Source of the DNA: a virus
Lineage: Duplodnaviria > Caudoviricetes
DNA length: 64,000 bases
Reading direction: 5' to 3' (one strand)
IMG/VR virus record: IMGVR_UViG_3300005613_000060
Coordinates: 59-64,058 of that record
Part shown: piece by piece, positions 1-17,300 of the stretch
How the letters are laid out: each line of letters starts with the position of its first letter
How positions within the stretch are numbered: position 1 is the first letter of the stretch
Program-made: the position numbers and the translations under genes
Notes under the pieces: model-generated
Databases searched by the model: none
What the model was told of the DNA's origin: nothing
What the model saw: the letters and a program-made list of their open reading frames with translations, nothing else

Positions 1-3000
1 CATATGATTCAGAAGGAATTCTTTTTTCAAATGTTTTCTCAGACCTTTTTGTACCATGATAAACAATATCTTTTACTTTACTATCAGGAAATATAGTATC
101 AAGATATTGAGAGTATTGTTCAGGAGTTCCTATATTAGCTAATTCAGGATTAGATTCAAATAGTTCTAACACACCTTCTTTAACACTAGTAGATGATTGA
201 GTAGGTTGAGTAGATTTACTTCTTAGTTCTTCCACTACTTCTGCTAAAGCTGTAGGATGCATACCTTGACCTCTAGCAGCTAACTTACCTGCATATAATA
301 GAGTAGCACCGTCTAGCTTACCTTGGTTAATTTGATCAAGTATCCAAGCTCTTTGTTGTGATTTTAATTGCATTCCTGTATCATTATTAAAGCCAAACTC
401 TTCTAAAAGTCTTTGTTTTAAATATTGATATGTTTGAGGAGCTTTTTCTTTTAGTTTAGCTAATCCAGTACCTAATCCATCTTTAGGAAATACTACATCT
501 TTTCCAGTAGCTTTTATTTTAGCAATATCTTCATCTATTACAGCTTTATTTTTAGTTAAATCTTTATCAGTCATAAAAGCAGACTCTGCATTAGAAGGAG
601 CAAGTTTAGTAGCAATACCTATAGCATTAGGATTATTTCTAATCTGAGCTTGTCCCCCTGTACCAGCTCTTTGAGTATTATCCCCAAAACCATATATTTT
701 ATTTGGATTAGCCTTTACATCAGCATCTGTATATCTGTCAACAATTTCTAGATTTGTAGTAAGCCAGTTTTTATAAGCTACCACAGCTGCACCTATACTA
801 GGTACTTTTATAGTACCACCATAACCCGCCTCACTAAAAGGATTACCAAAATGTTCATTAGGTTTAGCAGATTCAGTACGCATTGTATTAACTCCTTCTG
901 CACTATATACAGGTCTTGTTTTTAAATCTCCCGACCATTCTCTACTTAAATCTATTGTAGGTTTAACACTAGTAGATGATTGAGTAGGTTGAGTAGTAGT
1001 TGTAGGAGCTTGTTGTTGAGTAGTAGCAAATCTAGCTTTAAATGCTTGTTCATTTTTAACATTACCAGAATTAGTTCTAAACTCCCAATCCTTTGGTGCT
1101 AGTACTGTAGTAGGAATACCTAATCTCATACCTGCTTTTGCACCTGCTTCATCAAATCCTGTTTGACCACCGCTTCTAATACCTGTTATTTTAATTTTTA
1201 AATTAGGTGAATTAAGTGCAGCATTTAATAATTGATATGTAAATTCATCTACTTGCTCTTGAGTATATTGTTTCATATCATATATACCATTACCAGCAAT
1301 ATTTAATGTTTTAATATTTTTAGAATTTAAAATATCTACTAACTTATTTACTCTTTCTGGTGTAACATTTAATGTACTTGCGTTTAAAGCAATATATGTT
1401 TTACCTTGTTCATTAACAGATTTTTTAGTAAGTTTTTCACCTGGTGTTTCAAAGTTAATTGCTAAATGTATTGTTGCATCAGCAGAAGCATTAATTCTAG
1501 TTCTAGCTGGATAACCACCAGTTTGATTTTCTTCAAAATTAATTTCAGCTGCAACACCTTGTTGTTGAGTAGATGATTGAGTAGGTTCTTCAATTACTTC
1601 TGGAGTTACCGGTAAGGCAGCTTCTGGATTATTATATTGTTTAGGGTTTGCTTCAATATAGTTTTTAATATAATCTGGAGACATAAGTGTATTAAATACA
1701 CTATTTAAAACTAGACCGTTTTGAGCTTCTAATTTTTCTGCAATAAAGAAATTACTTTCATTTCTAATAATCTCATTAGTTTCACTTTGGTTAACTATAT
1801 CGTTAATACTATTTGCTGAATAACCAACACCATGTTGATAGACCATAGCTCTATTAAATAAAGAAAACCATTCTGATATTCTCTGATTTTCTACAGGATT
1901 AGAAACTTTTTTTACAGTTGGATCTGCAAGTTGTCTTATGTTTTGTTCATAAGAGTCAGAGATTTCTCTATTTAATTCTCTTTTATTTGATAATGTAAGA
2001 ATTTTGTATTTTCTTCTACTAGGTGCTTCTGCAATTTGTAATTTCTGTAATACTGGAAATTGCTCTTTTAATTCTGGATTATCTTTAATTACTTCAAGAA
2101 TTTTTTCAGAGTATGCTAGTTTTTCTCCTTTAAGCATTACATAAGGATTAAAGCTATATATTAAAGCTTTTTCAGTAAGATATGCTTCATATGCTTTAAC
2201 ATCTACATCATCTGTTAGTTTAAGCATAGACTTAAAGTTTAAGAAGTCTTTATCTTTTTTTGCTTTTTCTAAAGAGTTATTAGCTTCTTGTTTAGCTTTT
2301 TCTAGATGATACTTTACAAATACTACTGGGTTTTTAAAATATTCTTTAGAATTAAAAGACATCAATCCTCTAGACTTATATGACTTGTCTGATGAACTTT
2401 GTTTTAAATATAGACCTTCATTATAGTCTTCATTAAGTATATCATAATTAACATAAAGTACATTGTCAATTACTTTTGCAGGGACCTCTAATTTTTTATT
2501 TTCTTTTACTTCATAGCCTCCGTATTCTGTTGGACGGGTAATAATATTACCATTACCATCAGTAATGTGAGACATTGTATTTTGATAAATATAATTAACA
2601 ACTGCGTTACTTAAAGCTGAGGTAAATCTTTCCTGGCCTTCAACACCTGCACCAAATTTATTTTTAATATTGACTCTTTGTGCATAGGTTATATATGTTA
2701 GATAATCTATAAAAGTATCATTTAATCTTAAAGTAAATAATGGTTTTATCAACTCTGTAGAAATATCATTTTTATAAAAAGATGAAAGAATACTATTATT
2801 TTGATAAGCGTCTACTAAATCAGATGGTACTCCTATTTCTTTTTTAATATTTTTAAGATTTGCTTTTCTTTTTGAACTTTGAAAAGAAGTTTTAGAAAGT
2901 TTTGTATCAGGATTAAATAACTTTTTAGCTTCTGAATAACCTCTAGTATCATTCTCAAGTAATAATAAGTGTAAGAAGTAAGCTAAGTTTTTATTCTTTT

Positions 3001-6000
3001 TATTTTCACTTAAGTTTTTCAAAAGAGCTTCATTTGTATAGAGCTCTTCTGTCATTGAGTTAGCTACTATTTCCGCATAAGGTAACAACGTAGGACCTGT
3101 TAATCTGTCTTTTTGATAAGAATATTTAAATTTATTACTTGGGTCAATAAAAGAAAAATCTTGTACATCACCTATAAACGCATCTATGTTTTTAATAGTA
3201 TCTGTTTTTATTTTTTTCCCATCTACTATTATTTCAGGTAATTGTTTTATAGCATCTTTAAATCTTTGAAGGTTAGCTTCAGATTCTAATCTACTATATT
3301 CATTTTCTGAAAGGTATCCTTTAAGGATATTTCCTGCAGCCATCCACTCTTTTTCAGATTGATCTCCTGTAATAATTTTTCTCCAAGGACTTTTTATTTT
3401 TTGTTTCTCCTCTACATACTCTTGAATCAAAGGTTGAGACAAAAAGTATACAGCTGCTCTTTCATCTACACCAGCTTCAATTAAATAATTTAATGTATTT
3501 AAAGATTCTAAATTTGCTCTTACATAAAATACCCATGGATCTTTTTCAACATCCACAAGCCCATTCATTAAATGTGAATGTAAGTCTCCTATTTTAGTTC
3601 CTGACGTGTTTAATTCAGAAGATAAAGATATTCTACCATCTTTGTTTCTCTTATGCTTAAGTCTTATGTTTAATTCTCTTTTAACATTTCCTTTAGCTTT
3701 AACACCGTTTTCATAAACAACATCTTCAACTTCTTTAGGCATTGCTGCACCAATTGATTTTTTAATTGGATGTTGTTTATTTTCTAAAGCTACTATACCT
3801 AAACCATCTTTACCTGTCATATTAACTTTTAAGTTATTAACATTGTATAGTGCTTCAAGTACTCTTGTAGGACTTATATTTTTAGATGTGGGTACTTTTT
3901 GTCTATTTTCAAATCTATTGTAACCTTTTTGATAGTCTTTTACATCCTCTACAATATCTTGTAAAAGATAAGTATCATTAGGTTTAACAAGTAAGGCATA
4001 ATTTTCAGGAAGAAGTAATAGATCTGCAGTAGCTTTAAGAGTTTCATTTTCTAAAGCTTTCTTTTTAATTTGGATTTGATTTCTTATTTCCTTCTTTTCT
4101 TTTTTATCTTTAGCCTTATCATACCTTTCCTCTAGTTCCTTTAAAGATAAAGCTGACTTTATAACTTTGCCACTCTTATCTAAATGAGGATAAGTAAAAA
4201 ACAACTTATCACCATCAAAGTCGGAACCTGCTTTGGCAACTAATTCAGAAGGTACAACTACTTGATTACCAAAACTTTCTGGTAAGAAATGATAAATTTC
4301 TGCAACTTCCATAGAGTTATGCTCCTGAACAGGAATACGTGGACCAGCAATAGTAATTGACTCTCTATTTTCTTCTACCCAAGTTTCATCTTTGATAGCT
4401 TGATTAAGAGTTTCAATATTACCAATAGCTTTTCCTTTATATTCTAAATTTAAAAGATTAACAAAGTCTCCTTGTAGAGCTAGTGCTACTTTCATAGCTT
4501 TTGTTCTACCTTTACTTTTTTGATAAAAAGGTAAACCATTTGTTCCATCTTTAGTATCTACTGACCATTTATTACCAAACATTGAAACAGGCATTTGAAG
4601 TAAAGGTTCTCCTTTTACTTTTTGTTTAATCAACCTTTTTTCAATAATAGAAACTAATGTTTTTTCTATAATGTCTGCTTTAATGTGTATTGATAAATCA
4701 GAGATAAGGTTACCTTTTGGTGTTACACCTATAACATCTAATAAGTGATTTGGTAAATCTCTATCTTCTAACTCTCTTTTAATTAAATCTAGAAACTGGG
4801 AAGGGTTACCAAAATAACTATTAGAAATAGGATCATATTTATATCCAATTTCTTCAAGAAGTTCTAATCTTAAAACATCACTTGAATCATCAATTGCTTT
4901 TTTATATTGAGCAACTTTTTCTTCATAGTTTTTAGTTTTTGGCATACCTTCTGTAAAAGCCCCGTCTAAAATCAAACCTCTTACCTGGGTAGGGTAACTT
5001 GTTTGATTTTTATATTTTCTATTAACAGGAGAAGCTTTCTTCAAGTACTCTACATAAACTCTATTCTTTGTGAATTTTATATCTTCATTAAAACTTTTGT
5101 AGGTTTTACCATTATCAGCATCATCATTATATATCTGATCTCTGGAACCATCGGAAGTTATTGTTGTCCCTTTTGAGCCTGTTCCAAATGTAACATATTG
5201 AATATCTTTTCTGATCATTTGATCATGAAGATTTTGCAAATCACTACCTTCTATTGCATCTGGTATTAAAGGAAACAAAGAAAACTTATGCATAGCTAAT
5301 GCTGTCATTCCTTCATTAGCTAAAGGTCCAAAGTTTTGAAGCTTATAAGGAGGGAAGAAATGTTTAACATCTTCTGTATTGTACTTTTCTTTTCTTACTA
5401 TTTTCTTATAAAAAGTTTCTTGATCATCAGACCAATCATTTTCTAATTTTTTTAAAGTTCTATAAACATCAAAAGTAATGTATCCAGCACCATCACCTTC
5501 TTCCATATTAGAATATTTTTTAATATCCTTTTCTACTTTTTTAGCTACTTTATCTTTATAATCTTTTACTCCGGCATCTTTAAATTGTTGAGTATAAAGT
5601 TCTTCTAAAGATTCTTTAATGTTTTTTAAATAAATAGAATCAATTTTTACATCTCTTAATATAGCTGTATTAAAGACACCTGAATATTTAAATATCTTTT
5701 CTCCAATAGATTCTGAATATGTGTTTACAGGGGCTCCTTCTTCAGCCTTAACATTAAAAACTTCATTAATAAATTTTCTAGCTGCAATATCTGTTCTAAA
5801 CTTAGGACCTCCAGAAGATGCTCCAGTATTTCTTTTGTGAAACTCTTCTTTTGCGTGGTTAAACTGAGCTAAGCTTCCATAAAATAAATGAATCATTTCA
5901 AAGTTATGAATCCAAGAATTATATGTGTAACTTTTCATTACAGCATTTATAGCATCTTTACCTTCTAGTTTTGTTTTTTCTAAAAGAGCTGGAGCTATAT

Positions 6001-9000
6001 ACTCATTGTTTCTTAAGAAATCTCTATTTCTAGTAGTTTCTTCTTTAAAATATCCTGTTACTTCATTAAATAAGTCATTATAAAGATTAGTATCTTGATT
6101 AGTAACATAATCAGTAAGGTTATCTATTCCTTGCTCGATTAAACCGTATAATTTCTTTTTAGTAGTGTCTGTTAGTACATTATCAAATGCTGTAAATAAC
6201 TCACCTGCAAGATACTCTTTACCATCAAATTTAACTTTTTTGTTAAACCCTAAATAGTTTTTATACTTAGGATCACTTTTAAACATTTTAATTCTTTGGA
6301 ATTCTGTTTCAATGTAACCCAAAAGAATATGATCAAAAGCATATTTAACACCTTTGCTTCCATTAAAGGTATTAGTAGGTACATATAAGTGATCATCACC
6401 GACAACACTAATATCATATCTTTTTAATCCACCTTTAACTCTTGCGCCATAAGAAGATTTTTTACTAGCATGTCTTGGATTTTCAGCAACACCTGCTCCT
6501 AATAAAGAATGAATGTTTTGTAAAAAGTAACCATACTGATCTAAGTCTGTAGTATTAACTCCTTCTTTAGTACCATCTGAATTAACAATTTGAGTACCTG
6601 AATTCATAAAAAGCTGAAAGCTTCTCTTAGTTAATCTCTTTCTAGAATCACTAGTAAAATCAAATAATGACTTAATAATTTGAGAATTTTCTGTAAAACT
6701 ATTTTTACTAGGATTTAAAAACTCCATATGTCTAACATTAAGATACATGTCAGAAAGAGTTTTAGCATTATCTAATTCATAACCTATTCTGGTAATTTCA
6801 TTATCTGCTATATGTGGGAATACAGTATCACCTGCTGCATTAGGCACTCCAAAACTTAAAGCTTCAAAACCTTTATTAGCATGTAACTCTGCAAGCTTTT
6901 TTATATTATTAGACTGATTAACTTCTTTATCTTTTTCTAATACTCCTTTTTCTATTTTAGAATTTATTGTAGTAAGAGGATTTTTCTTAAAGTTTTCAAG
7001 AAATTCATTTTGCTTAACATTATATACTCTTTCTCCTCTTTCAATTATTGCAGCTTTTTTTGCAATATCAAAAATATAAGCTATACCGTATTCCTTAAAG
7101 TTTGTTTCTAAGTCTTCTTTAATTGCTATAGTATCATCTAAGTATAAGCCTAAACCTCTTAAGAAACCAAAGATTTTATTTCCATCTTTGTCAATGCTTC
7201 CGCTATCATTCTTATATTTATTTACTAACTCATTAACATTAAGTAAGTTAACATTATCAGATGTTCTTTGAACAAATGGATTTTCTAAATCATTTTTAAA
7301 TGTATTTACCCATCTCTGAATAATAACAGGAGCTTCCATAGAAGCTTCTATAATTTTTACTTCACCTGTTTCTGCAAAGTAAGTAGTTTGTAGATAAGGT
7401 AACTCAGACTTAGAAAAGTCTTGCCATAGAGCAGTTACAGTATCAAATTCAGAACTTGTTTTAGCATAATCTGCAGGGTTTGGAAGCTTGTATTTAATAA
7501 GTTGTTTTAACTCAGGTATAAGATCTTGTGATTCAACTAGTTTATCATACATTACTTGAGGATCTTTAATACCTGCAATTTGTCTAGTAACTAAGTTCCA
7601 TACGTTATAAAAGTCAGCTCTTTTCTTAAACCCGTATTCATCTAATTCATTCTTTCCTTCTCTATTAACAGCAAATAAACTTTTAAATATATACTTAGTT
7701 TGTGGATTAGCATCATCTAATATAGATGTCTTACCTACTTTTTTATCCCATACTTCTGCAGAATCACTTCCAGATTCAGGATCAGTAATATCTACCTCTT
7801 CTCCATTTTCATCTACATAGTCAGTACCTTCAAGACTATCTTTATCATCAGCTCTTAAATACTCATAAGCTGAGTTTTGCAAGTGATAGTTTACAAAACC
7901 ATTACTTGGATCTCCAAAGTTTGCTAATGTAGTTTCTAATACTTTAATTTTATTAAGTAAGTTATTTTGTTCTGCAGTAAGAGGTTTTAACTGAGGTTTT
8001 TCTTTTATTACTACATCTTTAAAATTTTGAGCTCCTGCCTGTAGATAATTATCATACTGATCAATTATATCAGTTTGATCCGCTACTACCATAATTTGTA
8101 CCGGAGTACCATCTTTATTTACAAGATCATTGTGGTAATAAAAATCTGCAACAATGTTTATATCAAAATAAACTTGACCTTTAACTCTTAATCCTTTTTT
8201 AAGAGCTGGTGTTAGCTTCGTAAAATCACTTATTTGTGAAGTAGTAAAAGCGTAGAGCTTTTCCTCATTTTTCTTAACAATAAACCCGGCTGAAATCTTT
8301 TCTAATTGATCAACAGTAGTAGCTTGATTAAAACTTTTATCAGATATATCACCAAGCTTATTTCTAAACTCTTTTGCTTTAGCATCTAAAGTTTTTCTTA
8401 CTTGCTCATAAAGTTTAGCCTTATTGTTGGAACTTCTTAATGCACTAATTACATATGCTTTATTTTTTGTTTTTTCAACAAGGCTATCAAGATATTCAGA
8501 TATAATACTATCAGTTGCATTAAGCATAGCATCTGCTTCTGTAGGGCTTAATACATAATCTTTAACTTTACTTACTCCTCTAACACCTCTGTTTAATTCA
8601 TTAAACATGATGTTATCTATGGAAGGTGTAAGATTATTAAATGTTCCAAAGTATAATTTATTAAACATCTCATTTACCGCAGGTATTTGAGTTGCACTAA
8701 ATGAATCACTTTTTGTAACCCCTTTTCCAAATAAAGCTTTTAAGAAGTTCCACATTTTTCTAAAAATAGAATTTCTTTTTGGAGAACCTTTTTTAGCTTT
8801 TTGATTTCTTGCATAATCTCTAAAGTCTTCAGCAAGCATTTCTTCTATTTCAAAAAAACTTAAATCTTTATACTTAGGATTACTATTTCTAACTTCATTA
8901 TAGAGATCTATTTTTTGAGGTTTAGTTAGGAATAATTGTGAGAACCCGTGCCACGCCTCATGATAAACATCAACAGAAGAACCTTTACCTATTTTAATTT

Positions 9001-11371
9001 CTGCTAACTTACCGTCATTATAAACTTTAGAACCGCTGACAATAAACTTAGCAAATACATCAGAGTTTACTATTCTTTGTAAAGGGTCAAACTCTATGAA
9101 CTTAGATAGTGGTGAGTTTTTAAACCACTCTTCAGCTGCTTTTATTTCTTCTTCAGATACTTTTAAATCTTTACTTTGAGTTCTGAATATTTCAAAGTCA
9201 TCATTAAGATTATCTTGATCTTCAGCTTTAGCTTGATTTTCTGTATTATTTTTTTGAGGATCTAAGTAAGGTACTATTTTCTTAAAGAATATTTCAGCTA
9301 CATCTTCAGGAATAATTGTTTTACCACTAGCTTGAGCTAGTAAATCCATTGTTTTTTCAGCAATCTCAATATTGTATTGAGAAGCATTATTTATTATTTC
9401 TGATTCTAATAGTTTTACTCTTAATAAATAATCATCAGCAGATTCTCTCTCCAGTTTATTTAATAAATCTTGTCTAATGCTTGGATTGTCAACATCTTCA
9501 ATTATCTTATTAGCAAGAACTTCTTCAATAGGTTTAGGAGTATTCTTTTCTTTTTCTAAAACCTCCATAAATTTATCTGCTTCTCTTGTTTCTAAGCTAG
9601 ATAAATCTGATTGTAATTCTAGATTAGGAGAAAATTCTATATAACTATTAAAATAGAATTGACCTTTTGTTGTATTTAACTCTAAAGGTAAGCCTGTAAT
9701 AAAATCTAGATAATTAGCTTCTACAAGTTTACCATCTTGATATAAATAAAAAGTATCTCCCCCAATAAGATCTTTTTTGTAATGCATTTTTAAAGGAAAG
9801 TAATTTCCGTTAGAACCCTTTGCATTATCTAGCACATTTAAAACAGTTTCTTTTCCTGTAACATCAATATTTTTATTATCAATAATTACTGATTTTACTT
9901 CACCTGGCTTTTTAGAATCTCTTCTTTCTTGTGAAGTTAAAGTATTATAGTTAAAATATATTTTACCATCTTTAGAACTAAATTGTGCAATATGCCTTTG
10001 TGTTGTACTATCTTCTATTCTAGCTGGTTGTGGAAAAAATTGTCTATAAAATATGCTTTTTTCTTCTACTGTTAAATTTGGATCAAATAGAACATCTACA
10101 ACCATAGCATTTATCTCTCTAGTAGAATCTGGTTTTTCCAATAAAATCTCTCTATCATTTATAGTAACAACAGTACTTCCTGTTTGAAAACCATTTCTGG
10201 GTTTGTCAATAGGCTCTGCAGTTTGTAAAATATCTTCTTGAGACATTGAAATTTCTTCAACACTAGTTAAACGAATTCTACTACGATTAGGAGATATAGG
10301 CACACCTTCACTAATACCTGTCATGTGAATATTAAACTTATCACCTTTTCTAACCTTTTGGGTTAAATCATAAACTTGTTTAAATTCTTTTTGTTGTTGT
10401 TTTTCTATTTCTTCTATACCTACTGTAATATCTCTTTCTGCTAATAAGACAGCAGGTAATACAGATATATCTGTAGCATCAAAGTTATAAGCTGTATACT
10501 TATCTTTTTCTTTATCTACTCTTCTTAGTAATTGAAAGACTAGTTTACCATCTTTTTGATTTGAAACTTTACCTTCAGGGTCAAAGAATACAAAATTGTC
10601 ATTAGAGTCAACAATTACCAAAGCTACTCTTTGTCCTAAATTTTTAGAGTCTTTAAACTTTATAGAAGAACCAATCTGGTCTCTAAACTTTTGAGGAAGA
10701 TTAGGAGCTAATGCAGTATCTTCATATAATTCTTTTAAAGTAAAAGTTTTTAACTGTAAGTCTTTGCCATCATAAGTAATAAAAGGACTTAAACTGTTAA
10801 ACTTATTATCTTTTCTTAGTTTTTTTAAAGTGTTGTATATATACTTTTTTTCATCAGAAAGTATTTCAAAATCTGTTCTTTTTTCTCTTTTTTCTAAATC
10901 TCCTTCTAGTTCTTGAAAAGTAGTTGCAAAAACAGATCTTGGTAAATAATCAAGTTCCACTGGACCTACATCCTTACCCTCATTAGAACTATAGTTTTGA
11001 ACTATATAATCATTTAAGTTTTTAAGCGCAAGTAAGGATCTAGATGTATCAATATCATCCAGGCTGTTTATAATAGTATTTATACCAGAATCAGTATCTT
11101 CAAATTGTTTAATTAATTTTCTTACACCATCTACACTAACTTCAATGTCAGGATATCTCATTGCAATATTTGTTACCAATCTAGGAATAGGTTGAACAAA
11201 TTTAGCAGCTGTTTCTTTATCTTTTATATTCTTGATATCACTAAACAACTTACTCATATAAGCATTAGGGTCAAATGTTTGACCCTTTTTTAAACTTGAC
11301 ATATTCTTGTATACGTCCTTATATAAGTTTTCTATTTGTGTAGGTGATAAGGCACAAGTAATTTTTCCCAT
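1..11371 (-). CDS. Giant virion-packaged two-barrel RNA polymerase polyprotein (crAss-like vRNAP), >3790 aa, 3' end outside the window
   Basis: ATG at 11371 (MGKITCALSP...), 4 nt after the upstream stop. Hand translation of several segments gives one frame, open at base 1. It contains GPRIPVQ..S...FLP...VVPSELVAKAGSDFDGDKL (DFDGD at 4208-4222), GDGAGYITFDVYR...PPYK...HKFSLFPL (~5500-5270), LVDVEKDPW (~3550), HEAWH (8948-8962) and C-terminal accessory domains. Confidence 0.93.
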   Translation of the reverse strand, partial: MGKITCALSPTQIENLYKDVYKNMSSLKKGQTFDPNAYMSKLFSDIKNIKDKETAAKFVQPIPRLVTNIAMRYPDIEVSVDGVRKLIKQFEDTDSGINTIINSLDDIDTSRSLLALKNLNDYIVQNYSSNEGKDVGPVELDYLPRSVFATTFQELEGDLEKREKRTDFEILSDEKKYIYNTLKKLRKDNKFNSLSPFITYDGKDLQLKTFTLKELYEDTALAPNLPQKFRDQIGSSIKFKDSKNLGQRVALVIVDSNDNFVFFDPEGKVSNQKDGKLVFQLLRRVDKEKDKYTAYNFDATDISVLPAVLLAERDITVGIEEIEKQQQKEFKQVYDLTQKVRKGDKFNIHMTGISEGVPISPNRSRIRLTSVEEISMSQEDILQTAEPIDKPRNGFQTGSTVVTINDREILLEKPDSTREINAMVVDVLFDPNLTVEEKSIFYRQFFPQPARIEDSTTQRHIAQFSSKDGKIYFNYNTLTSQERRDSKKPGEVKSVIIDNKNIDVTGKETVLNVLDNAKGSNGNYFPLKMHYKKDLIGGDTFYLYQDGKLVEANYLDFITGLPLELNTTKGQFYFNSYIEFSPNLELQSDLSSLETREADKFMEVLEKEKNTPKPIEEVLANKIIEDVDNPSIRQDLLNKLERESADDYLLRVKLLESEIINNASQYNIEIAEKTMDLLAQASGKTIIPEDVAEIFFKKIVPYLDPQKNNTENQAKAEDQDNLNDDFEIFRTQSKDLKVSEEEIKAAEEWFKNSPLSKFIEFDPLQRIVNSDVFAKFIVSGSKVYNDGKLAEIKIGKGSSVDVYHEAWHGFSQLFLTKPQKIDLYNEVRNSNPKYKDLSFFEIEEMLAEDFRDYARNQKAKKGSPKRNSIFRKMWNFLKALFGKGVTKSDSFSATQIPAVNEMFNKLYFGTFNNLTPSIDNIMFNELNRGVRGVSKVKDYVLSPTEADAMLNATDSIISEYLDSLVEKTKNKAYVISALRSSNNKAKLYEQVRKTLDAKAKEFRNKLGDISDKSFNQATTVDQLEKISAGFIVKKNEEKLYAFTTSQISDFTKLTPALKKGLRVKGQVYFDINIVADFYYHNDLVNKDGTPVQIMVVADQTDIIDQYDNYLQAGAQNFKDVVIKEKPQLKPLTAEQNNLLNKIKVLETTLANFGDPSNGFVNYHLQNSAYEYLRADDKDSLEGTDYVDENGEEVDITDPESGSDSAEVWDKKVGKTSILDDANPQTKYIFKSLFAVNREGKNELDEYGFKKRADFYNVWNLVTRQIAGIKDPQVMYDKLVESQDLIPELKQLIKYKLPNPADYAKTSSEFDTVTALWQDFSKSELPYLQTTYFAETGEVKIIEASMEAPVIIQRWVNTFKNDLENPFVQRTSDNVNLLNVNELVNKYKNDSGSIDKDGNKIFGFLRGLGLYLDDTIAIKEDLETNFKEYGIAYIFDIAKKAAIIERGERVYNVKQNEFLENFKKNPLTTINSKIEKGVLEKDKEVNQSNNIKKLAELHANKGFEALSFGVPNAAGDTVFPHIADNEITRIGYELDNAKTLSDMYLNVRHMEFLNPSKNSFTENSQIIKSLFDFTSDSRKRLTKRSFQLFMNSGTQIVNSDGTKEGVNTTDLDQYGYFLQNIHSLLGAGVAENPRHASKKSSYGARVKGGLKRYDISVVGDDHLYVPTNTFNGSKGVKYAFDHILLGYIETEFQRIKMFKSDPKYKNYLGFNKKVKFDGKEYLAGELFTAFDNVLTDTTKKKLYGLIEQGIDNLTDYVTNQDTNLYNDLFNEVTGYFKEETTRNRDFLRNNEYIAPALLEKTKLEGKDAINAVMKSYTYNSWIHNFEMIHLFYGSLAQFNHAKEEFHKRNTGASSGGPKFRTDIAARKFINEVFNVKAEEGAPVNTYSESIGEKIFKYSGVFNTAILRDVKIDSIYLKNIKESLEELYTQQFKDAGVKDYKDKVAKKVEKDIKKYSNMEEGDGAGYITFDVYRTLKKLENDWSDDQETFYKKIVRKEKYNTEDVKHFFPPYKLQNFGPLANEGMTALAMHKFSLFPLIPDAIEGSDLQNLHDQMIRKDIQYVTFGTGSKGTTITSDGSRDQIYNDDADNGKTYKSFNEDIKFTKNRVYVEYLKKASPVNRKYKNQTSYPTQVRGLILDGAFTEGMPKTKNYEEKVAQYKKAIDDSSDVLRLELLEEIGYKYDPISNSYFGNPSQFLDLIKRELEDRDLPNHLLDVIGVTPKGNLISDLSIHIKADIIEKTLVSIIEKRLIKQKVKGEPLLQMPVSMFGNKWSVDTKDGTNGLPFYQKSKGRTKAMKVALALQGDFVNLLNLEYKGKAIGNIETLNQAIKDETWVEENRESITIAGPRIPVQEHNSMEVAEIYHFLPESFGNQVVVPSELVAKAGSDFDGDKLFFTYPHLDKSGKVIKSALSLKELEERYDKAKDKKEKKEIRNQIQIKKKALENETLKATADLLLLPENYALLVKPNDTYLLQDIVEDVKDYQKGYNRFENRQKVPTSKNISPTRVLEALYNVNNLKVNMTGKDGLGIVALENKQHPIKKSIGAAMPKEVEDVVYENGVKAKGNVKRELNIRLKHKRNKDGRISLSSELNTSGTKIGDLHSHLMNGLVDVEKDPWVFYVRANLESLNTLNYLIEAGVDERAAVYFLSQPLIQEYVEEKQKIKSPWRKIITGDQSEKEWMAAGNILKGYLSENEYSRLESEANLQRFKDAIKQLPEIIVDGKKIKTDTIKNIDAFIGDVQDFSFIDPSNKFKYSYQKDRLTGPTLLPYAEIVANSMTEELYTNEALLKNLSENKKNKNLAYFLHLLLLENDTRGYSEAKKLFNPDTKLSKTSFQSSKRKANLKNIKKEIGVPSDLVDAYQNNSILSSFYKNDISTELIKPLFTLRLNDTFIDYLTYITYAQRVNIKNKFGAGVEGQERFTSALSNAVVNYIYQNTMSHITDGNGNIITRPTEYGGYEVKENKKLEVPAKVIDNVLYVNYDILNEDYNEGLYLKQSSSDKSYKSRGLMSFNSKEYFKNPVVFVKYHLEKAKQEANNSLEKAKKDKDFLNFKSMLKLTDDVDVKAYEAYLTEKALIYSFNPYVMLKGEKLAYSEKILEVIKDNPELKEQFPVLQKLQIAEAPSRRKYKILTLSNKRELNREISDSYEQNIRQLADPTVKKVSNPVENQRISEWFSLFNRAMVYQHGVGYSANSINDIVNQSETNEIIRNESNFFIAEKLEAQNGLVLNSVFNTLMSPDYIKNYIEANPKQYNNPEAALPVTPEVIEEPTQSSTQQQGVAAEINFEENQTGGYPARTRINASADATIHLAINFETPGEKLTKKSVNEQGKTYIALNASTLNVTPERVNKLVDILNSKNIKTLNIAGNGIYDMKQYTQEQVDEFTYQLLNAALNSPNLKIKITGIRSGGQTGFDEAGAKAGMRLGIPTTVLAPKDWEFRTNSGNVKNEQAFKARFATTQQQAPTTTTQPTQSSTSVKPTIDLSREWSGDLKTRPVYSAEGVNTMRTESAKPNEHFGNPFSEAGYGGTIKVPSIGAAVVAYKNWLTTNLEIVDRYTDADVKANPNKIYGFGDNTQRAGTGGQAQIRNNPNAIGIATKLAPSNAESAFMTDKDLTKNKAVIDEDIAKIKATGKDVVFPKDGLGTGLAKLKEKAPQTYQYLKQRLLEEFGFNNDTGMQLKSQQRAWILDQINQGKLDGATLLYAGKLAARGQGMHPTALAEVVEELRSKSTQPTQSSTSVKEGVLELFESNPELANIGTPEQYSQYLDTIFPDSKVKDIVYHGTKRSEKTFEKRIPSESY
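179..213. repeat. 35-nt exact direct repeat, copy 1 (encodes the TQPTQSSTSVK interdomain linker)
   Basis: tttaacactagtagatgattgagtaggttgagtag is identical at 179-213 and 962-996; a 20-nt core recurs at 1568-1587. Confidence 0.95.
962..996. repeat. 35-nt exact direct repeat, copy 2
   Basis: Identical to 179-213. Confidence 0.95.
1558..1587. repeat. Partial third linker repeat
   Basis: agtagatgattgagtaggtt (1568-1587) matches the 35-mer core; cttgttgttgagtag (1558-1572) matches 1009-1023. Confidence 0.85.
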
Positions 11372-11375
11372 AACA

Positions 11376-14300
11376 TTAACAATCTAAATCTTCTAAAATA
11401 TTATTTCTGGTATTATCTTCTGTTAGCTCAGTAAGATCTACATCTGTAGCTTTAAAATCAGTAGTATCTAAGAAGTTATCAACTTCATCTTTTGTCTGAT
11501 CAATGCTTTGTTTATCCTGAGCATCCAATTTCTGTACTTTTTGTTCTGCTTTTTTACCCATGTTAGTTTTAAATGTTGCAAAAGAATTAAGTTCTTGAAT
11601 AGTCAAAGATAAGGTTTCTCCTTCACTATTTTGTAATTTTACATTGTTTTTATTTGTTTCAATAACTTTAACAGTTTCACCAACACCTGCAAACAATTCA
11701 TTTCCTTTTGTAATAATTTTTTGAACTATAAATTCATTACCTTTATTAACGTTTGTATCATCAGCTTTTACTACTTCTTCTACTTTTGATTTTTGTAGTT
11801 TGTAAGCTTCTCTTAATTCATTAACTTGTTCAGGACTAAACTCATCTATATTTTCTTTTATTTCTTGAGACAAAGTTTCTAAATCACCTAATTTAGTAAC
11901 GGCTTGTATCTTAGATATATAGTCATTAAATCTTTTTGTAGTTTCTTCAGCAGTTGGTTTTAAAGTAGGCTTAAAGCTAAGAGTACCTTTTACTTCTTCT
12001 TCAAATTGTTCTTCTTCAGTGACAGGAGTAGTAGGAGCTTTTGCAGGAGCTTTAGTAACTTTTTCTTTTACTTGTTTTTCTTTTCTGCTAGAAGTTTCTG
12101 CATCTCGTTTAGGGCTTCCTTCCTCTGTTGGGGTTTCAACTTCAGAAGCTGCGCTCTCTGCTGAATATTTAAATGTTGGAAGAGTTTCTCCTGCTTTATA
12201 GGCTGTTTCATAATCTATTAAATAATTAAGGTCTTTTTCTAATTGTTCTTGTACTGCTTCTATATAAGCTATAGTCAAGTTGTTTTTCATTCTTAAAGCA
12301 CTATCTTTCTTAATTCTAGATGCTTCATTATAAACATTGTAAAGATAATCAATAGCTTCTCTTAAAGCAAAAATATCTACAGGTAAACCTTCCATGGCTC
12401 TGTTGATTACTCTGAAGTTAGAATCGCTCATTCCTTCAAATAAATCATAAGTAGGTATACCATACTTTTCTATTCTGCTATTTATTATCTCATCAATTTC
12501 ATTTTTAGAACTTTCTATTTCCTTAACTACTTCTGAATCAAAGCTTAAACTTGATTGTTCACCTGGTTCAGATACTTTTTCATCAGCTACAACTTCACCA
12601 TACTTTTCTATCATGCTATTAGCAAAATTAGAAAGCTCTGTTTCATCTAATGTAGTTCTTACAAAATCTATTTCTTCATCAGTCATTAACTTAATAACAG
12701 GTTCTTCTAAACCTATTCTATTAAGTTTATTCATCATGGCATCTGAAAGTTGTTTTCCAACTTGCATTGTAGGTTGAGCCTGCGGTGTTGGTTGACCAGG
12801 TTTTTCTTTTAAAGGAATTATTGTCTCAACAAGTTCTTGTACTGTTTGTCCTTTTAATGGTCCATCTTTATGAAAAGAATCAGTTACATTAAGTTTAATT
12901 CTATTAGTACCTGGAATAAGTAAACCACTATATTTAGGCAAAGTACCTTTAGTAATCTTACCATCTTTAACTACATCGTTAACTTCAATAGGAAAAACAG
13001 ATATACTAGAGACCATACCTGTCATGTTATATAACAAGTTTCTATATGCCGCTTGTTGTAAAGTATAAGCTTCTCTGCTAGGATGAGTACTAAACTTACT
13101 CCATTTGTCTTTCTTACCGGTTTTAATATCAATAATAAAAACTTTACCTGTTCTATCTACAGCAACTAAGTCAGCTGTTCCAGCAACTTTAGCTTCTTTA
13201 TCATAAAGTATAAGTTCATCAGAAATTATTACTAAACCATTATCTTTTACTTGTTTAACAATATTAGTAATAGAACCTTCTTCACCAAATAACTCTTCAT
13301 AAGCTTCTTCAGTTATTTTTTTAGGATCAAATTTAACCTCACCACCTGCAAAAATAGTTCTTACAGCAAAATCAATATAATCACCAGCATCTGTAGTTTC
13401 TTTATTTTGAAACTCGTTAATGGCTACTTCTAGTATTTCAACTGTAAGATTATCTTTTCTTTTATTTAAATATGTTTCTAAACCAACAAAAGAAGCTTCA
13501 GAAAAACCTTGAGGTCTCTTCTTTTTAAATTGAGAAACCATGTTTGCTATTTCTTCTCCTGTAGCTTTATTATTTTTTACAGTATCATTATATATACTTA
13601 TAGCATCTGCCATAAATTTATAATCATACTTTTCATATTTTATGTCTTTAGTTGCATTGGTAACTCTTTGTAATAGAACATCGTCTATCATATAAGATCC
13701 TAAACCTGTTTCTTTAGGAGTCTTTATTTCTTCTTTTTGTTTAGCTAATAAAGCCTCAAGTATACTTACTGTCTTCTTTTGCTCAGGAGTCATTTGAGAA
13801 AGATCAAGATTTTTTAAGTAAGCATCTATAGAATTTATAGTAGATTGCATTCTATTTATTTCTACTATATCTTCATTAGTTTTATCTTTCTTTTCTTCTG
13901 CAACTTTTAATTTACCAGCAAGAGTTCTTTTCATTTTTATAAGCTCTGCTTCTGTAAAGTCACTAGCTTTTTTTGTTTCTCCTTTTACAATAAGTTCTGG
14001 ATCATATGTAGGATCGCTTACTGCATTCTTTAACTCTTGTTGTGCATTATAATCATTTATAAGATCAGCAGCTACACGATTAGTTTTAATAAATGAAGTT
14101 AATTGCTCATCAGTAGGTTCTTGATCTGCAGGTAACCCTAATCTTATTTGTTCATTTAAGTAAGCATCTTGTATAGCTACTGCAAGCTCTGTAGGCATGT
14201 CTGAAATAGGAGTATCTTTAGTAATTGTTTTTACTATTCCTGCTTTCTTTTCTTCAGCTTTTGCTTCAGCTTTTAGTTTAGAAATTCTTTCCGCATATTC

Positions 14301-17300
14301 TTTAGTTATCTCTTCTGCTTTTACAGGATCGGGTACAAAATCTTTAACATAAGTTTGACCAGATTTAAACTTTTCTTTACTCTTCATATCAAAGAGTTCC
14401 CCGTTCTCATCATCATACCTTAAGTTACCTTCCTTATCCTTATATAAAGTAATAACTTCATCACCATCTTTTCTCTCTATTGTAAGCTCAATATATTGTT
14501 CAGGAAAAGATTTTTGATCAACACGGTTAATATTAAAAGTTTTAGCTAAACGTTTAGGTTCTATCTGATCTTTATCTATTCTTTTTTCTACTTTATCTAA
14601 AGCATTAATTTCTGCATCTCTTTGTTTAATAAGTGCATCAATTTTATCTTGATATACTTTATCAACAACATCTTCCTTTTTACTTCTTACAAGTTGAGCT
14701 CTATAGAATATTACAGCATAATCATTATACTGATGATGACCTTCACGTATTACAGCTTTTTTAGTATCATCATAAAACTCTACAGGTATCTCACCATTGT
14801 TTTTCCAATTTTCAAATTGGTCTATACTTACATATATATTTTGAGAAGCTAACCAGTTTAATATTTCATTATCTTCTACATCTTCAAATCCTTTACGGAC
14901 CATCTCTGTATAGTAAGATCTTCTATTTTCATAGAGAGCCTTCATCCATTCCATGTTTCTTTCAACATGTTCCATGTACTCATTAGGGTCATGTAATATA
15001 TTTATACCCTCTGCCAGGTCTCTGGACTCTTTACTTAATTCAAAATATTTAGAAAAGTTTTTAAAAGCTTTATCTAAGTTTTCATCAAATGTATATGTAC
15101 CTGATTTATCAGCTAACATTTGTATATAAGACTTAAAAGCTTTTTCAAGCTCAATAGACGCAGGACTTATAAAACTTTTATTCATTTTATAAATTTCTTC
15201 TGCTGCTTCTTCAAGTTCTTCTTCTGTATATTCTGTTTCTGTTAAACCAAGTTGAATTTTTATCTGAGCTTTAACTTCACTTTTATTTTTCTTAACATTT
15301 TTAAATGAAGCTATGGCTGATTGCAAATCTCTTAAAGCTGTAATTTGCTTTTTCTTAAACTCATAATCTTTTTTGTCAGGTATTTTATCTAATCCTTCTA
15401 ATGATTCTACCTCAGTTTCTAATATATTAATTTGATTAAGTAGAAGATTATCTTCAAATAAAACTCTTACATCCTGAGCATTTAAATCTTTTATTTCAGG
15501 AATAGATGTTACACTATCAATAATGTTAATCATCTCTTTTCTTGTATTCTCAAAAGCTTGATTAAAGAATACATAGTTTCTTCTTGCTATTTTCCAAGCA
15601 TTTTCTAAAAGTATTGACTTCTCATACTCTGAAGAATCTTTATCATAAGAAGAAGTTTTAGTAAAATCAATAGGATCTGGGAATCTTTCCTTAGCTTCTT
15701 TCCATTTACTCTCTATACTTTTAGCATTATCAATTGCTGTTTCAATTTTTTGTAAATAGTTAGCTCCCTCACCGGGTTCTAAATTCATAGCTTCTTCAAA
15801 CTCTTCTTGTGTCAAATCTTTATAAGCATTCATTTGCTCATAATAGATATCCATAGTATCATGTTCTAAAGCTGTAGTAACTCCATCAACAAAAGCATTT
15901 TCTTTAAGTATTGATTCTGTTTCTTCACTAGTTTGCTTTTTAATCTCATTACTGATAGTTGCTTGAGAACCATAGTTAAATATTCTAGACTCCCAAAAGT
16001 CTTTTATGTCTACAGCATTCATTCTATCAGCAAGTCTATTACCATAGTTTGCTTTAGCATCTTTATACTTTTGATATGCCGCTGGATCAGAAAATCTTTT
16101 ATAAGCCATAGAACCTAAAACAGGAGCTCTATTTAAGGGACCCGCAAAAGCACCCATAACAAAACCAGATGCAAAAGTTTCAAAACCTTGTTTAGTAAAC
16201 TGTGACTCTATACCTTCCATTGCCATAGCTTTAGCAAATTCTGAAGTAGCCAAAGCAGGGTTTTTAAAACTTTCTATATAATACTTTTCGGTACCCATAG
16301 CAATTGCTTCTTGAGCATTTTCTTGTAAACCTTCTAATACATTAGCTTTAAAATAAGTTATTGCACCAACTGCAGATTTTTTTAATGGCTGTTTAGCAAA
16401 ATTCTTTATGGTGTTTTTAAGATTGTTTTGAACATACTCTGCTGTAGGTACTTTTAATGTTTTCTTACCTACAGTTTTTTTAGTATATGTTTTTATAAGC
16501 TTACCTGTTTTAAGATCAAGTACCTCTTTCATCTTATTACCAAATAGACGATTAAGGCCACCTTTTCCTCCAAAAACATTATCAAATACTAATTTATTAC
16601 TACCAAGAATTATAGGCATGTTAAATGTTAAAGCTGCAATACCTGCATCTTTTGCTTTTAATCTGAATTCTTTTTGTTTATCATTATCTGGAGCAAAACC
16701 ATTTTCTTTATAGAAATCATTATATAGTTCTCTGTATACAGAGTTTTCTACCATACCACCTTCTAATCTTGATTCTGATAGTGCTGCATTAACAGTAACT
16801 ATATCTTGATAAAAAGAACCGAACATTTGTTTACCTTTAGCAAGACCTGTCAAGTTCTTAGAATTTTTAGCAATATCAAAAAAAGTTTCTGTAGTATTAC
16901 TTAAAGGATTAATAAATTTACCTAAAGGACTATTAAAAGTTTTTTCAGCTTTAGTAAAATTATAAAATTTTCTTGCATTATCTGCACTCTTAAGTGACTG
17001 TAAGCTTTTTCTAAACTGATTTGCTGTAGTTGCATTTTTAAGTTTAGATAATCCAGATAAACCTTGACCAAGCATTTTAACTTTATTACCTAACAAAGCT
17101 CCTTCAGCTACTAAAGAACTACCTCCGGTAGGTGCCGTAAGTAAAGCTGCAGCACCCATCTCTAATATAGACTCTACAACAATTCCTGCGGTATAACCAA
17201 AGTTCATAAAAGCATTAGACATGAAAGAACCAAAACCTTCTTTACTTGATTGACCAATAGCTGCGGCTCTTTCATATATTTCTGCATCATCTGTATCTGA

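Follow-up and report, generated by a model that had tools for sequence, protein, structure and literature searches.

We analysed a 64-kb window (the whole stretch of viral DNA, 64,000 nt) and found that the tail of its crAss-type virion RNA polymerase (RNAP) carries an array of modules separated by short in-frame DNA repeats, here called joints. These joints are probably seams at which an injected polyvalent payload recombines in frame. Repeats, codon fixation, breakpoints at joints, the identities of the modules and their mosaic distribution were all observed; the crossovers themselves would be located in the joint DNA.

The polymerase is part of a giant ORF that fuses a zincin-motif region, the RNAP core and the module array, within a block of giant genes adjoining structural genes (MCP, portal and TerL). 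Phage hallmark genes were found within the window, Pfam gave nothing above cut-off on the neighbouring giant ORFs, and no tRNA genes were found in the window. From the whole ORF to the end of the core, the features are:

2-11371, minus strand: giant ORF, 3790 aa in the window and 3809 aa with the last 58 nt of the record; its 3' end is truncated by the contig end.
8948-8962, minus strand: HEAWH (aa 804-808), a zincin-type HExxH motif, assigned from the motif alone (zero Pfam families at E<=0.01).
2822-5824, minus strand: RNAP core segment (aa 1850-2850), AlphaFold2 model with a mean pLDDT of 72.5.
4208-4222, minus strand: DFDGD (aa 2384-2388), the catalytic DFDxD motif of crAss-type virion RNAPs.
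1586-1600, minus strand: end of the core, ..PEVIEE (aa 3258-3262), where homology to the closest cores ends.

An earlier note on this DNA had taken the ORF for a virion RNAP, and the DFDGD motif, the fold of the core model and tblastn homology bear this out: the giant ORF is a crAss-type virion RNAP. The available text of Drobysheva et al. (bioRxiv 10.1101/2020.03.07.982082) gives DFDxD as the motif of these enzymes; here its three Asp are invariant among 16 aligned relatives, and its context is kept in ORFs of 17/17 relatives. In Foldseek searches the core model best matched 6vr4_A, the virion RNAP of phi14:2 (E 3.5e-26, probability 1.00, TMq 0.54, 1042 columns, 18% identity in the fold alignment), followed by QDE-1 chains (E 2e-4 to 9e-4), and its predicted fold is that of a two-barrel RNAP like gp66 and QDE-1. 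Searching with aa 1850-2900, tblastn matched 49 phage records (best E 2e-24), each of which has a crAss-like name, and matched crAss002 gp33, a 'putative RNAP catalytic subunit', across the motif (E 2e-6). By sequence, the whole ORF had no match in the PDB (phmmer), and positions 1-5000 of the window had none by blastn among 50,697 phage records. Relatives of the core comprised one locus among viral contigs (33%) and three matches of near length in the protein database, and 592 pattern matches in metagenome contigs yielded none that was confirmed. The HEAWH motif also occurs in the vRNAP of G002. From its homology to phi14:2 gp66 and to crAss001 cargo, the polymerase would be packaged in the virion and delivered to the host; mass spectrometry places the crAss001 cargo in the virion, according to the portion of Bayfield et al. 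2023 (PMC10172136) at hand.

In the tail, joint 3 separates the core from the cpYpsA SLOG, joint 2 separates the SLOG from a DUF4326-like shell that encloses DUF7831, and joint 1 separates this shell from the beginning of an ART-PolyVal domain. The features are:

1559-1585, minus strand: joint 3, PTQSST+QQQ (aa 3263-3271), containing two repeats, the 20-nt core (1568-1587) and TQQQ on the left (1558-1572).
1028-1558, minus strand: module 1, a circularly permuted YpsA-type SLOG domain (aa 3272-3448; Pfam PF12694, phrog_10774).
962-1027, minus strand: joint 2 region, ATTQQQAPTTTTQPTQSSTSVK (aa 3449-3470), containing the right TQQQ repeat (1009-1023) and a 35-nt repeat (962-996).
752-961, minus strand: N-terminal half of the module 2 shell, DUF4326-like, with a GNPF motif; 95% identical in nt to the shell of L163, which is uninterrupted.
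367-763, minus strand: nested insert (aa 3537-3668) containing DUF7831 (Pfam, aa 3545-3653, nt 413-739).
215-366, minus strand: C-terminal half of the module 2 shell, ..QRAWILDQINQGKLDG..EVVEELRSK.
179-214, minus strand: joint 1, STQPTQSSTSVK (aa 3720-3731), containing a 35-nt repeat (179-213).
2-178, minus strand: module 3, a conserved leader (EGVLELFESNPELANIGTPEQYSQYLDTIFPDSKVK) and the first ART-PolyVal residues (DIVYHGT..), truncated by the contig end.

A repeat search of the 64-kb window confirmed the identical linker described earlier, an exact direct repeat of 35 nt (179-213 = 962-996), together with a third copy at 1559-1593 that shows 66% identity over 35 nt and retains an exact 20-nt core (1568-1587). 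All three copies are in frame in the single minus-strand ORF; both 35-nt copies encode TQPTQSSTSVK (aa 3460-3470 and 3721-3731), and the core of the third encodes PTQSST (aa 3263-3268). A second, shorter repeat of 15 nt, CTTGTTGTTGAGTAG on the plus strand, surrounds module 1 (1009-1023 and 1558-1572) and encodes TQQQ. No further copy occurs leftwards in the remaining 58 bases of the record, which are all that exists there, and no orphan copies of the joint were found elsewhere in the 64-kb window at <=3 mismatches, the record of the window representing 54% of the genome.

A common low-complexity linker peptide could in principle give rise to such a repeat by chance or through codon bias, given that codon preferences are strong in this AT-rich phage (CAA 0.88, AAA 0.82) and that S/T/Q/P linkers are frequent in the family. 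However, when the codon usage of the window is applied to the identical 11-residue peptide, the same codons are expected throughout with a probability of only 2e-4 to 5e-4, so codon bias fails to account for the repeat or for the identity at synonymous sites that the earlier note had stressed. Moreover, the 64-kb window contains two occurrences, at <=3 mismatches, of a 24-mer inside the 35-nt repeat, as against no match in each of 100 dinucleotide-preserving shuffles of the window, and the exact 24-mer recurs in 73 metagenome stretches, in 73 distinct contexts, 71 of them open on both sides. Based on the codon probability, the shuffles and these stretches, we rejected this explanation, whose chance of being right we regard as negligible.

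Over tail residues 35-124, module 1 scored 49.2 bits with PF12694, whose cut-off is 26.2 (E 5.9e-13). L004-L008 match the module at 72-78% aa identity, and these matches are bordered by the TQQQ flanks. For the shell, an atlas search placed 29 of 30 matches in the DUF4326 set (score 0.90, 200/256 features in common), and the Pfam DUF4326 model (PF14216) gave zero matches at E<=1 for the shell of the window or the insert-free shells of L051 and L004. The insert matched PF25176 (DUF7831) along profile positions 5-117 of 118 (E 6.7e-38, 129.6 bits against 27). Insert-free shells occur in L051, L163, P0005, P0006, P0008, P0010, P0028 and P0078, and the insert stands alone, without a shell, in L009, L011, L016 and L209; because the nested insert has no joint at its borders, some of the shuffling here proceeds without joints. 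The fragment of module 3 matched PF18760 (ART-PolyVal) at E 0.017, with 16.3 bits against a cut-off of 31.2, the end of the contig limiting the match to profile positions 8-41. Its homologue in P0028 is 62% identical over 77 aa, and the ART-PolyVal domain of P0028 passes the Pfam cut-off (35 bits against 31.2, aa 3149-3266, profile positions 8-129).

The SLOG domain, the DUF4326-like domain with an insert and the ART-like start proposed in the earlier note are thus supported by PF12694, PF25176, the atlas search and the P0028 homologue. Its description of the insert as macro-like is tentative. VIA-align of the DUF7831 insert against 48,161 chains gave a best Z of 4.6, with macro domains among the 50 rows (2lgr 4.3, 6lfq 4.2, 3eti 4.0, 3ejg 3.8, 5fud 3.5 and 7wr6 3.2), all too low to exclude a mere common arrangement; Foldseek returned nothing for module 2 at E<0.05, the best weak rows being PTP/DUSP phosphatases (E 0.05-0.5). 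Overall, the modules of the array point to NAD+/ADP-ribose-type chemistry, and NADAR and AlkB-like 2OG oxygenase modules were found in relatives. Because of this chemistry the modules are candidate counter-defence enzymes, which would be delivered ahead of any phage gene expression.

Homology to relatives starts and stops at the joints, in agreement with the proposal that the repeats are module borders. Homology to L004 and L006 covers module 1 alone, from TQQQ to TQQQ; that to L003 begins with KPTIDL, directly past the repeat, and stops at EVVEELR, just short of the next one; and that to L016 and L020 begins within the joint. Exact repeats of 26-31 nt surround one module in five contigs (L143, L150, L167, L214 and L138), joint pairs differing by T/C surround one module in L187/L201 and in L209, L016 contains an 18-nt repeat pair around DUF7831, and G002 an 18-nt QQQAP pair. 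Among 94 proteins, runs of the form [STQP]{5,} occur 2.37 times per 1000 aa in tails versus 0.15 in cores, with none in the core of the window itself. Of 446 merged homology breakpoints, 28% were located <=5 aa from such a run, versus 7% at random, and about 70% of the family breakpoints do not adjoin S/T/Q/P runs.

Across phages, the joint is fixed at the level of codons, its DNA being ACTCAA(T/C)CATCTACTAGTGTTAAA and its peptide TQ(S/P)STSVK. In viral contigs, one encoding was found at 31/34 in-context TQ(S/P)STSVK sites. A degenerate pattern for TQSSTSVK found 22 stretches, 12 of which encode the peptide, and the 24-mer of the window occupied 7/7 TQSSTSVK sites within module-bearing frames. 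For TQPSTSVK, a single 24-mer was present at 22/25 sites, counting sites in frames open for 100 codons on both sides, and two more copies lie near ORF ends. With the codon usage of the window, the expected chance of a shared encoding is about 0.5% per site. In seven distinct sequences, the same codon was used at 50/51 identical residues of the joint, compared with 196/244 in the adjacent leader. The contexts of the 24-mer in metagenome contigs fall into at least 41 downstream clusters and 64 upstream clusters. The sequences counted are related, and the joint counts are therefore not independent events. Because it is letter-identical in dozens of phages and links many modules, the joint looks like a built-in reshuffling seam.

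TQSSTSVK is also the native leader of the shell and ART modules in many phages and leads several module types, so joints could merely travel with modules. The joint might accordingly be kept for a role of its peptide, as a protease cleavage site or a flexible spacer, with the DNA identity stemming from such travel and recombination itself being illegitimate and filtered by selection. As a cleavage site, it would allow the protein's own zincin, or another protease, to free modules inside the capsid or once they are in the host. The ORF does contain an HExxH motif; Drobysheva et al., in the text available, expect cleavage of the fused polyprotein, with a zincin-like protease in gp65 orthologues, and the accessible part of Iyer et al. 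2017 proposes that MPTase domains release polyvalent domains autoproteolytically. As a spacer, it would let modules unfold and refold singly during ejection, consistent with the low confidence of the AF2 model of module 2 over its first 39 residues and with crAss001 cargo being thought, in the portion of PMC10172136 at hand, to traverse the tail partly unfolded. Nevertheless, a constraint on the peptide leaves unexplained both the excess of identical codons in the joint over the adjacent leader and the single encoding at in-context sites, and S/T/Q/P runs are nearly missing from cores, even though a zincin-RNAP fusion would also need cutting. We consider a purely peptide-based role unlikely, and favour joints that act as recombination seams.

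The distribution of modules is mosaic, with modules 72-98% identical in phages whose cores are only 21-37% identical. For instance, the module 2 of G001 is 85% identical in aa and 86% in nt, yet this phage gave no TerL or MCP match at E<=0.001. The closest cores (75-99%) part from the window at the first joint: that of P0002 is 75% identical up to EVIEE and then leads to different modules, and that of P0004 is 91% identical over 33 aa, with different modules directly past EVIEE. Module order also varies, from shell to SLOG in P0005, shell to ART in P0006 and P0028, and SLOG to ART in P0012. Relatives thus contain different modules between conserved joints, the pattern by which the earlier note proposed to recognise swapping.

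Contigs from three sequencing runs, each of a different study, match the core at about 99% identity (15/1425, 16/1415 and 12/1005 nt differences), cease fitting at 1568 or 1586 (1586 in X11 and X4) and continue unlike the window, that is, with under 85% likeness. The continuation could be a much diverged allele of module 1 instead of another module, which would still be a breakpoint. The highest share of sampled words of positions 1-2400 in any run was 0.41. In four runs, whose low-depth contigs barely contain the phage, no recombinant between the 35-nt copies and no deletion joint skipping the 783 nt between them was listed, and module 2 was nearly uncovered in run X1, possibly the source sample; at this depth, neither result is evidence of absence. 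RecT, ERF and RecA families were matched in 0/5 records, four of them >=94% complete.

The order SLOG, joint, shell/DUF7831, joint, ART might also be an assembly chimera of co-occurring phages, formed via the shared joint and ART leader. Indeed, the contig, a metagenome assembly, ends 178 nt beyond joint 1, inside a leader common to more than 50 viral contigs; none of the listed run contigs spans either joint 1 or joint 2 together with the sequence on its two sides; an X1 piece that is 100% identical over 68-204 departs from the window inside joint 1; and unitigs of other runs break at joints. However, the junction from joint to shell is present in the independent assemblies L103, L129 and L163, and in P0005 with the variant TTQSTSVK. 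Likewise, shell, joint and ART leader follow each other in L101 and L131, SLOG is connected to the ART leader by a TTQPS linker in P0012, and joint-flanked single modules occur in at least seven other contigs. The junction between the core and module 1 is covered by a 100% identical X1 piece (1335-1602). Furthermore, a repeat of 35 nt would be shorter than the reads and than the usual final assembly k-mers. A chimeric origin of this order is thus highly improbable.

We propose that the joints act as follows. The ORF would be a fused crAss-type cargo, composed of the zincin-motif region and the two-barrel virion RNAP, with a polyvalent-protein-like array placed between the core and the missing C-terminus, and the joints would serve as homology seams between modules. 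Recombination at joints, between co-infecting phages or between two joints of one gene, would allow whole modules to be gained, lost, swapped or reordered with the frame intact, and repeated exchange would keep the joints homogenised. The perfect 35-nt repeat around module 2 may be the trace that such an insertion or conversion left recently, and this repeat pair would render module 2 excisable in frame. It is also conceivable, although less likely than not, that the 24-nt joint has evolved into a portable signal for in-frame recombination, by which unrelated crAss-like phages would trade cargo enzyme domains one at a time. It would then be comparable to an integron attachment site, except that it codes for protein. 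That tentative reading would extend to phages without detectable TerL/MCP similarity, and the joint DNA would have been selected for exchangeability rather than for its peptide.

Phages are known to use injected polyvalent proteins, and the fast turnover of the domain sets in these proteins lacks an explanation. A codon-fixed, in-frame joint offers a concrete mechanism for this turnover, which is testable because the same 24-mer joins dozens of different modules in phages of many samples. The joint is also a simple sequence handle to find cargo effectors in metagenomes, by listing the modules past it, and for phage engineering joints are natural in-frame domain-exchange sites on a packaged carrier.

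Among known systems, phi14:2 gp66 shares with the window ORF the DFDxD motif and the 6vr4 fold match (bioRxiv 10.1101/2020.03.07.982082). The window ORF also resembles phi14:2 gp66/gp65 and the crAss001 cargo gp47/gp49/gp50 (PMC10172136) in lying within a giant-gene block by the structural genes. In the available text of Drobysheva et al. (bioRxiv 10.1101/2020.03.07.982082), gp65 is the zincin partner of the virion RNAP gp66, and the window ORF corresponds to the fused 'polyprotein' form mentioned there. In contrast, gp66 has 2180 residues, and the accessible part of its description does not mention an enzyme array. Domain maps of the RNAP gene block (Yutin 2021, Drobysheva 2020) may already draw fused accessory domains.

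The available part of PMC9503650 (2022) describes the same partnership of SLOG, DUF4326-like and ART domains, plus the NADAR and AlkB-like 2OG oxygenase domains that we found in relatives, with a predicted chemistry on ADP-ribose-derived signals. It deals with fusions in general, whereas the window has a nested DUF7831 and a shell on which the Pfam DUF4326 model failed; its main text contains neither 'crass' nor 'virion RNA polymerase'.

Polyvalent proteins, as far as the accessible part of Iyer et al. 2017 describes them, likewise combine unrelated conflict-type domains (ART-PolyVal, SLOG and others) in one phage polypeptide, with a zincin-type motif and a carrier protein of the packaged, injected kind, and recombinational cassette variability is raised there for one system. 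They contain 2-15 unrelated domains, and the window ORF holds cpYpsA, DUF7831 and part of ART-PolyVal, plus the RNAP. Unlike in those proteins, the carrier here is a crAss-type two-barrel RNAP rather than a single-subunit enzyme like that of N4, the array is placed between the core and the C-terminal peptide, and a codon-fixed DNA joint delimits the modules; 'linker' and 'crass' occur 0 times in the main text of Iyer et al. 2017. The polymerase tail is a variant of polyvalent proteins.

Polymorphic toxin loci are alike in that a conserved in-frame junction precedes a variable module, which is exchanged there by recombination. The VENN junction of CdiA is an example. The principle of cassette recombination into a main gene behind a conserved junction is cited in the accessible part of Iyer et al. 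2017. In the window, unlike in these loci, the joints are in series, no orphan cassettes were found in its 64 kb (54% of the genome), and the products are phage enzymes and not secreted bacterial toxins. Because several joints are in series within one gene, internal modules can be gained, lost and reordered. The polymerase tail is not a member of the polymorphic-toxin family and, by analogy, would work like one.

The first 11.4 kb of the window are a single minus-strand ORF (2..11371, 3790 aa), open at the contig end. A repeat search of the window found an exact 35-nt repeat (179-213 and 962-996) and a third copy with an exact 20-nt core at 1568-1587, all in the frame of this ORF, bearing out the repeat array that the earlier note had described in the tail of a virion RNA polymerase (vRNAP). 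The 35-nt copies encode TQPTQSSTSVK (aa 3460-3470 and 3721-3731) and the third encodes PTQSST (aa 3263-3268); a 15-nt repeat encoding TQQQ (1009-1023 and 1558-1572) also borders module 1. We rejected chance as the cause: 100 shuffles contained no copy of the inner 24-mer, even with up to 3 mismatches allowed, against two in the window, and the probability that two copies of TQPTQSSTSVK share all their codons, from the window's own codon usage, is 2e-4 to 5e-4. The repeat, hereafter the joint, is a real feature. Extending the contig leftwards, which the note had suggested as a way to count more copies, gained only the record's remaining 58 bases (ORF of 3809 aa) and no further copy.

Features of the window
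2..178, minus strand, module 3 (start of an ART-PolyVal domain)
179..214, minus strand, joint 1
215..961, minus strand, module 2 (DUF4326-like shell with nested DUF7831)
962..1027, minus strand, joint 2
1028..1558, minus strand, module 1 (SLOG)
1559..1585, minus strand, joint 3, the first joint after the core
aa 2384 of the vRNAP ORF, DFDGD
aa 804 of the vRNAP ORF, HEAWH (zincin motif)
46391-48007, major head protein (PHROGs)
49448-52186, portal (PHROGs)
52192-54393, large terminase (PHROGs)

The PHROGs names mark the window as a block of phage structural genes. Searching with aa 1850-2900 of the giant ORF (tblastn) matched 49 phage records, all crAss-like by name (best E 2e-24), including that of crAss002 gp33, annotated 'putative RNAP catalytic subunit'. 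D[FY]DxD occurs in the same context in 17 of 17 giant ORFs of relatives, and its three Asp never vary across 16 aligned core segments. The core had no recognisable counterpart by sequence in PDB or PHROGs. When aa 1850-2850 were modelled with AlphaFold2 (mean pLDDT 72.5), Foldseek matched the model to the phi14:2 virion RNAP, 6vr4_A (E 3.5e-26, TMq 0.54, 1042 columns, 18% identity), followed by QDE-1 (E about 2e-4). The DFDGD context, the crAss-like matches and the fold together indicate that the ORF is a crAss-type vRNAP fused to a zincin-motif protein. By analogy with phi14:2, and with crAss001 as judged from its virion mass spectrometry (Bayfield et al. 2023, PMC10172136), it would be packaged and delivered.

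The vRNAP ORF contains one cysteine, residue 6 (11354-11356), and the upstream ORF 11376-17897 (2173 aa) also contains one, as its last residue (codon 11379-11381), so that in gene order the two cysteines face one another. Of the 106 family proteins, in which Cys makes up 0.0006 of all residues, 103 have one among their last 6 residues. In cyanophage A4, ejection proteins are linked by a disulfide (Cys1715-Cys5; PMC12002296). The upstream ORF has a sub-threshold PD-(D/E)XK nuclease match (E 9e-4; 19.7 bits, cut-off 22), and no Pfam family was found in the three giant ORFs beyond it.

In Pfam searches, module 1 is a cpYpsA SLOG domain (49.2 bits, E 5.9e-13) and the insert of module 2 is DUF7831 (129.6 bits). 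The contig end truncates module 3, whose ART-PolyVal match stays sub-threshold for that reason (E 0.017, profile positions 8-41); the homologue in a relative's protein, P0028 (62% over 77 aa), exceeds the cut-off across profile positions 8-129. Alignment resolved module 2 into two parts, DUF7831 (aa 3537-3668) and a GNPF-motif shell that it interrupts, with no joints at the edges of the insertion. The shell occurs free of the insert in relatives, at 74-98% amino acid identity to that of the window in proteins P0005, P0006, P0008, P0010, P0028 and P0078, 46-58% in contig locus L051 and 93-95% nucleotide identity in L163; conversely, DUF7831 occurs without the shell in L009, L011, L016 and L209. 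The shell did not match the Pfam DUF4326 model at E<=1, and by language-model features 29 of its 30 Atlas matches belong to the DUF4326 set. The module 2 model (pLDDT 76.8) had no clear PDB match, with macro domains among its weak structural matches (Z 3.2-4.3), so that 'macro-like' is a tentative label for the insert. A second nested insertion without joints, of ~137 aa (aa 2117-2254 of its ORF), splits the SLOG module of L018.

Homology with relatives begins and ends at the joints, as the earlier note had described for the domain borders. It is confined to module 1, from left to right TQQQ, in L004 and L006; runs from KPTIDL, right behind the 35-nt repeat, to EVVEELR, shortly ahead of the following one, in L003; and starts within the joint in L016 and L020. 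In the closest cores, P0002 (75% over 343 aa) and P0004 (91% over its first 33 aa), homology stops at EVIEE, immediately ahead of the first joint. Both go on at once to other modules, which counts for the swapping proposed in the note: P0002 has an unnamed module besides an AlkB-like 2OG oxygenase, and P0004 has that same unnamed module, a DUF4326-like domain and ART. These two different arrays share an acidic end in their last ~45 residues (..DADSLGRNY..EEGPNW.EEDNES.DPF.C), and the Cys-bearing end is retained even where the tail is no longer than about 50 aa. The variable array thus has the core on one side and a conserved C-terminal piece on the other. The window lacks this piece: the contig stops 178 nt past the last joint (window 1-230), within a leader common to >50 viral contigs, a typical breaking place of assembly graphs. 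Joint-delimited modules also occur at about aa 742 in L088, upstream of the zincin motif HEAFH, and near the N-terminus of 1290-2038-aa ORFs in L015, L023, L025, L031 and L054, and arrays are therefore not confined to the vRNAP C-terminus.

We examined 34 of 79 viral-contig loci (L003-L032, L051-L054) and 106 proteins. Modules are 73-98% identical where cores are only 21-37% identical to that of the window. The complete genome G001 carries module 2 at 85% amino acid and 86% nucleotide identity, with no TerL or MCP match to the window at E<=0.001. G002, with MCP and TerL 88% and 69% identical to those of the window, has a vRNAP core only 28-37% identical and shares module 1 alone (68-75%), within a different array. 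Module order varies, and so does the length of the tail after the core, between about 50 and about 1670 aa (97 of 106 proteins placed). An assembly chimera could have produced the module order of the window, which we consider improbable, since independent assemblies contain the same cassette layout with flanking joints and every one of the junction types. Tails have a 16-fold higher density of S/T/Q/P runs than cores. Such a run is found within 5 aa of 28% of the 446 merged homology breakpoints, where random placement gives 7%; since the sequences are related, the figure is purely descriptive.

The best public sequencing run covered at most 0.41 of the words of 1-2400. Core-matching contigs came from runs of three studies: X2 (15 differences in 1425 nt), X11 (16 in 1415 nt) and X4 (12 in 1005 nt). 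Their fit is lost either past PTQSST (1568) or past EVIEE (1586), and they run on for 53-116 nt without fit at 85% likeness. In very close relatives, then, the match breaks off sharply at the first joint, and what follows is another module or a far more diverged module 1 allele. None of the run contigs listed spans joint 1 or joint 2 together with the sequence on its two sides, and none contains a deletion joint.

Fixation of the joint extends to its DNA sequence. All five distinct TQSST sites in the first loci collected read ACTCAATCATCTACT. A degenerate TQSSTSVK scan of 2.9 million viral contigs returned 22 stretches, 12 encoding the peptide; the seven in module-bearing frames all use the 24-mer of the window, and the other five lie in unrelated frames, three with a stop within 20 codons. 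For TQPSTSVK, in frames open for 100 codons on either side, 22 of 25 sites share one 24-mer, a single base off that of the window, and two further copies lie near ORF ends. Among seven distinct sequences with joint and ART-type leader, identical residues use the same codon at 50/51 positions in the joint versus 196/244 in the leader, and the baseline in diverged cores is 48-64%. The exact 24-mer recurs in 73 metagenome stretches with 73 distinct contexts; the 71 that are open on both sides form 41 downstream and 64 upstream clusters. Exact joint repeats of 26-31 nt surround single modules in L143, L150, L167, L214 and L138, and pairs differing by T/C enclose the shell alone (L187/L201) or DUF7831 alone (L209); the 35 nt of the window are the longest observed. 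A processing site, in line with the autoproteolysis expected by Drobysheva et al. (bioRxiv 10.1101/2020.03.07.982082) and Iyer et al. 2017, or a spacer would leave unexplained both this synonymous fixation and the near-absence of S/T/Q/P runs in cores, and seems to us rather unlikely. We favour the reading that the joints are recombination seams, which they probably are. They would supply 24-35 nt of perfect in-frame homology for exchange, and repeated exchange would homogenise them too. Such lengths are near the minimum for homologous recombination; RecT, ERF and RecA were found in none of five records.

The 36-45-aa leader ahead of the ART body (EGV.ELFESNPELANIGTPEQYSQYLDTIFPDSKVKDIVYHG) has about 80-88% identical codons in many contigs, and is kept while the ART body diverges past YHG. 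A 47-nt exact repeat of L054 (6204-6250 and 6894-6940) lies at TIFPDSKVKDIVYHG in two tandem modules, and in L128 a P-loop motif (GTSGSGK) follows the leader in place of ART. The leader could be another type of seam, or else a small adaptor element.

Our literature search found no description, in main texts, of such arrays on crAss-type vRNAPs or of a codon-fixed joint, and none of the papers it listed contains both 'Crassvirales' and 'ADP-ribosyltransferase'. The main texts of Iyer 2017 ('linker', 'crass'), Yutin 2021 ('fused', 'polyvalent', 'ADP-ribosyl') and Iyer 2022 (PMC9503650; 'crass') lack the terms in brackets. Iyer et al. 2017 describe polyvalent proteins, N4-type vRNAP forms that carry a metallopeptidase among them, and Iyer 2022 describes the DUF4326-SLOG-Macro-NADAR partnership; the vRNAP-zincin fusion of the window corresponds to the 'polyprotein' form mentioned in the preprint of Drobysheva et al.
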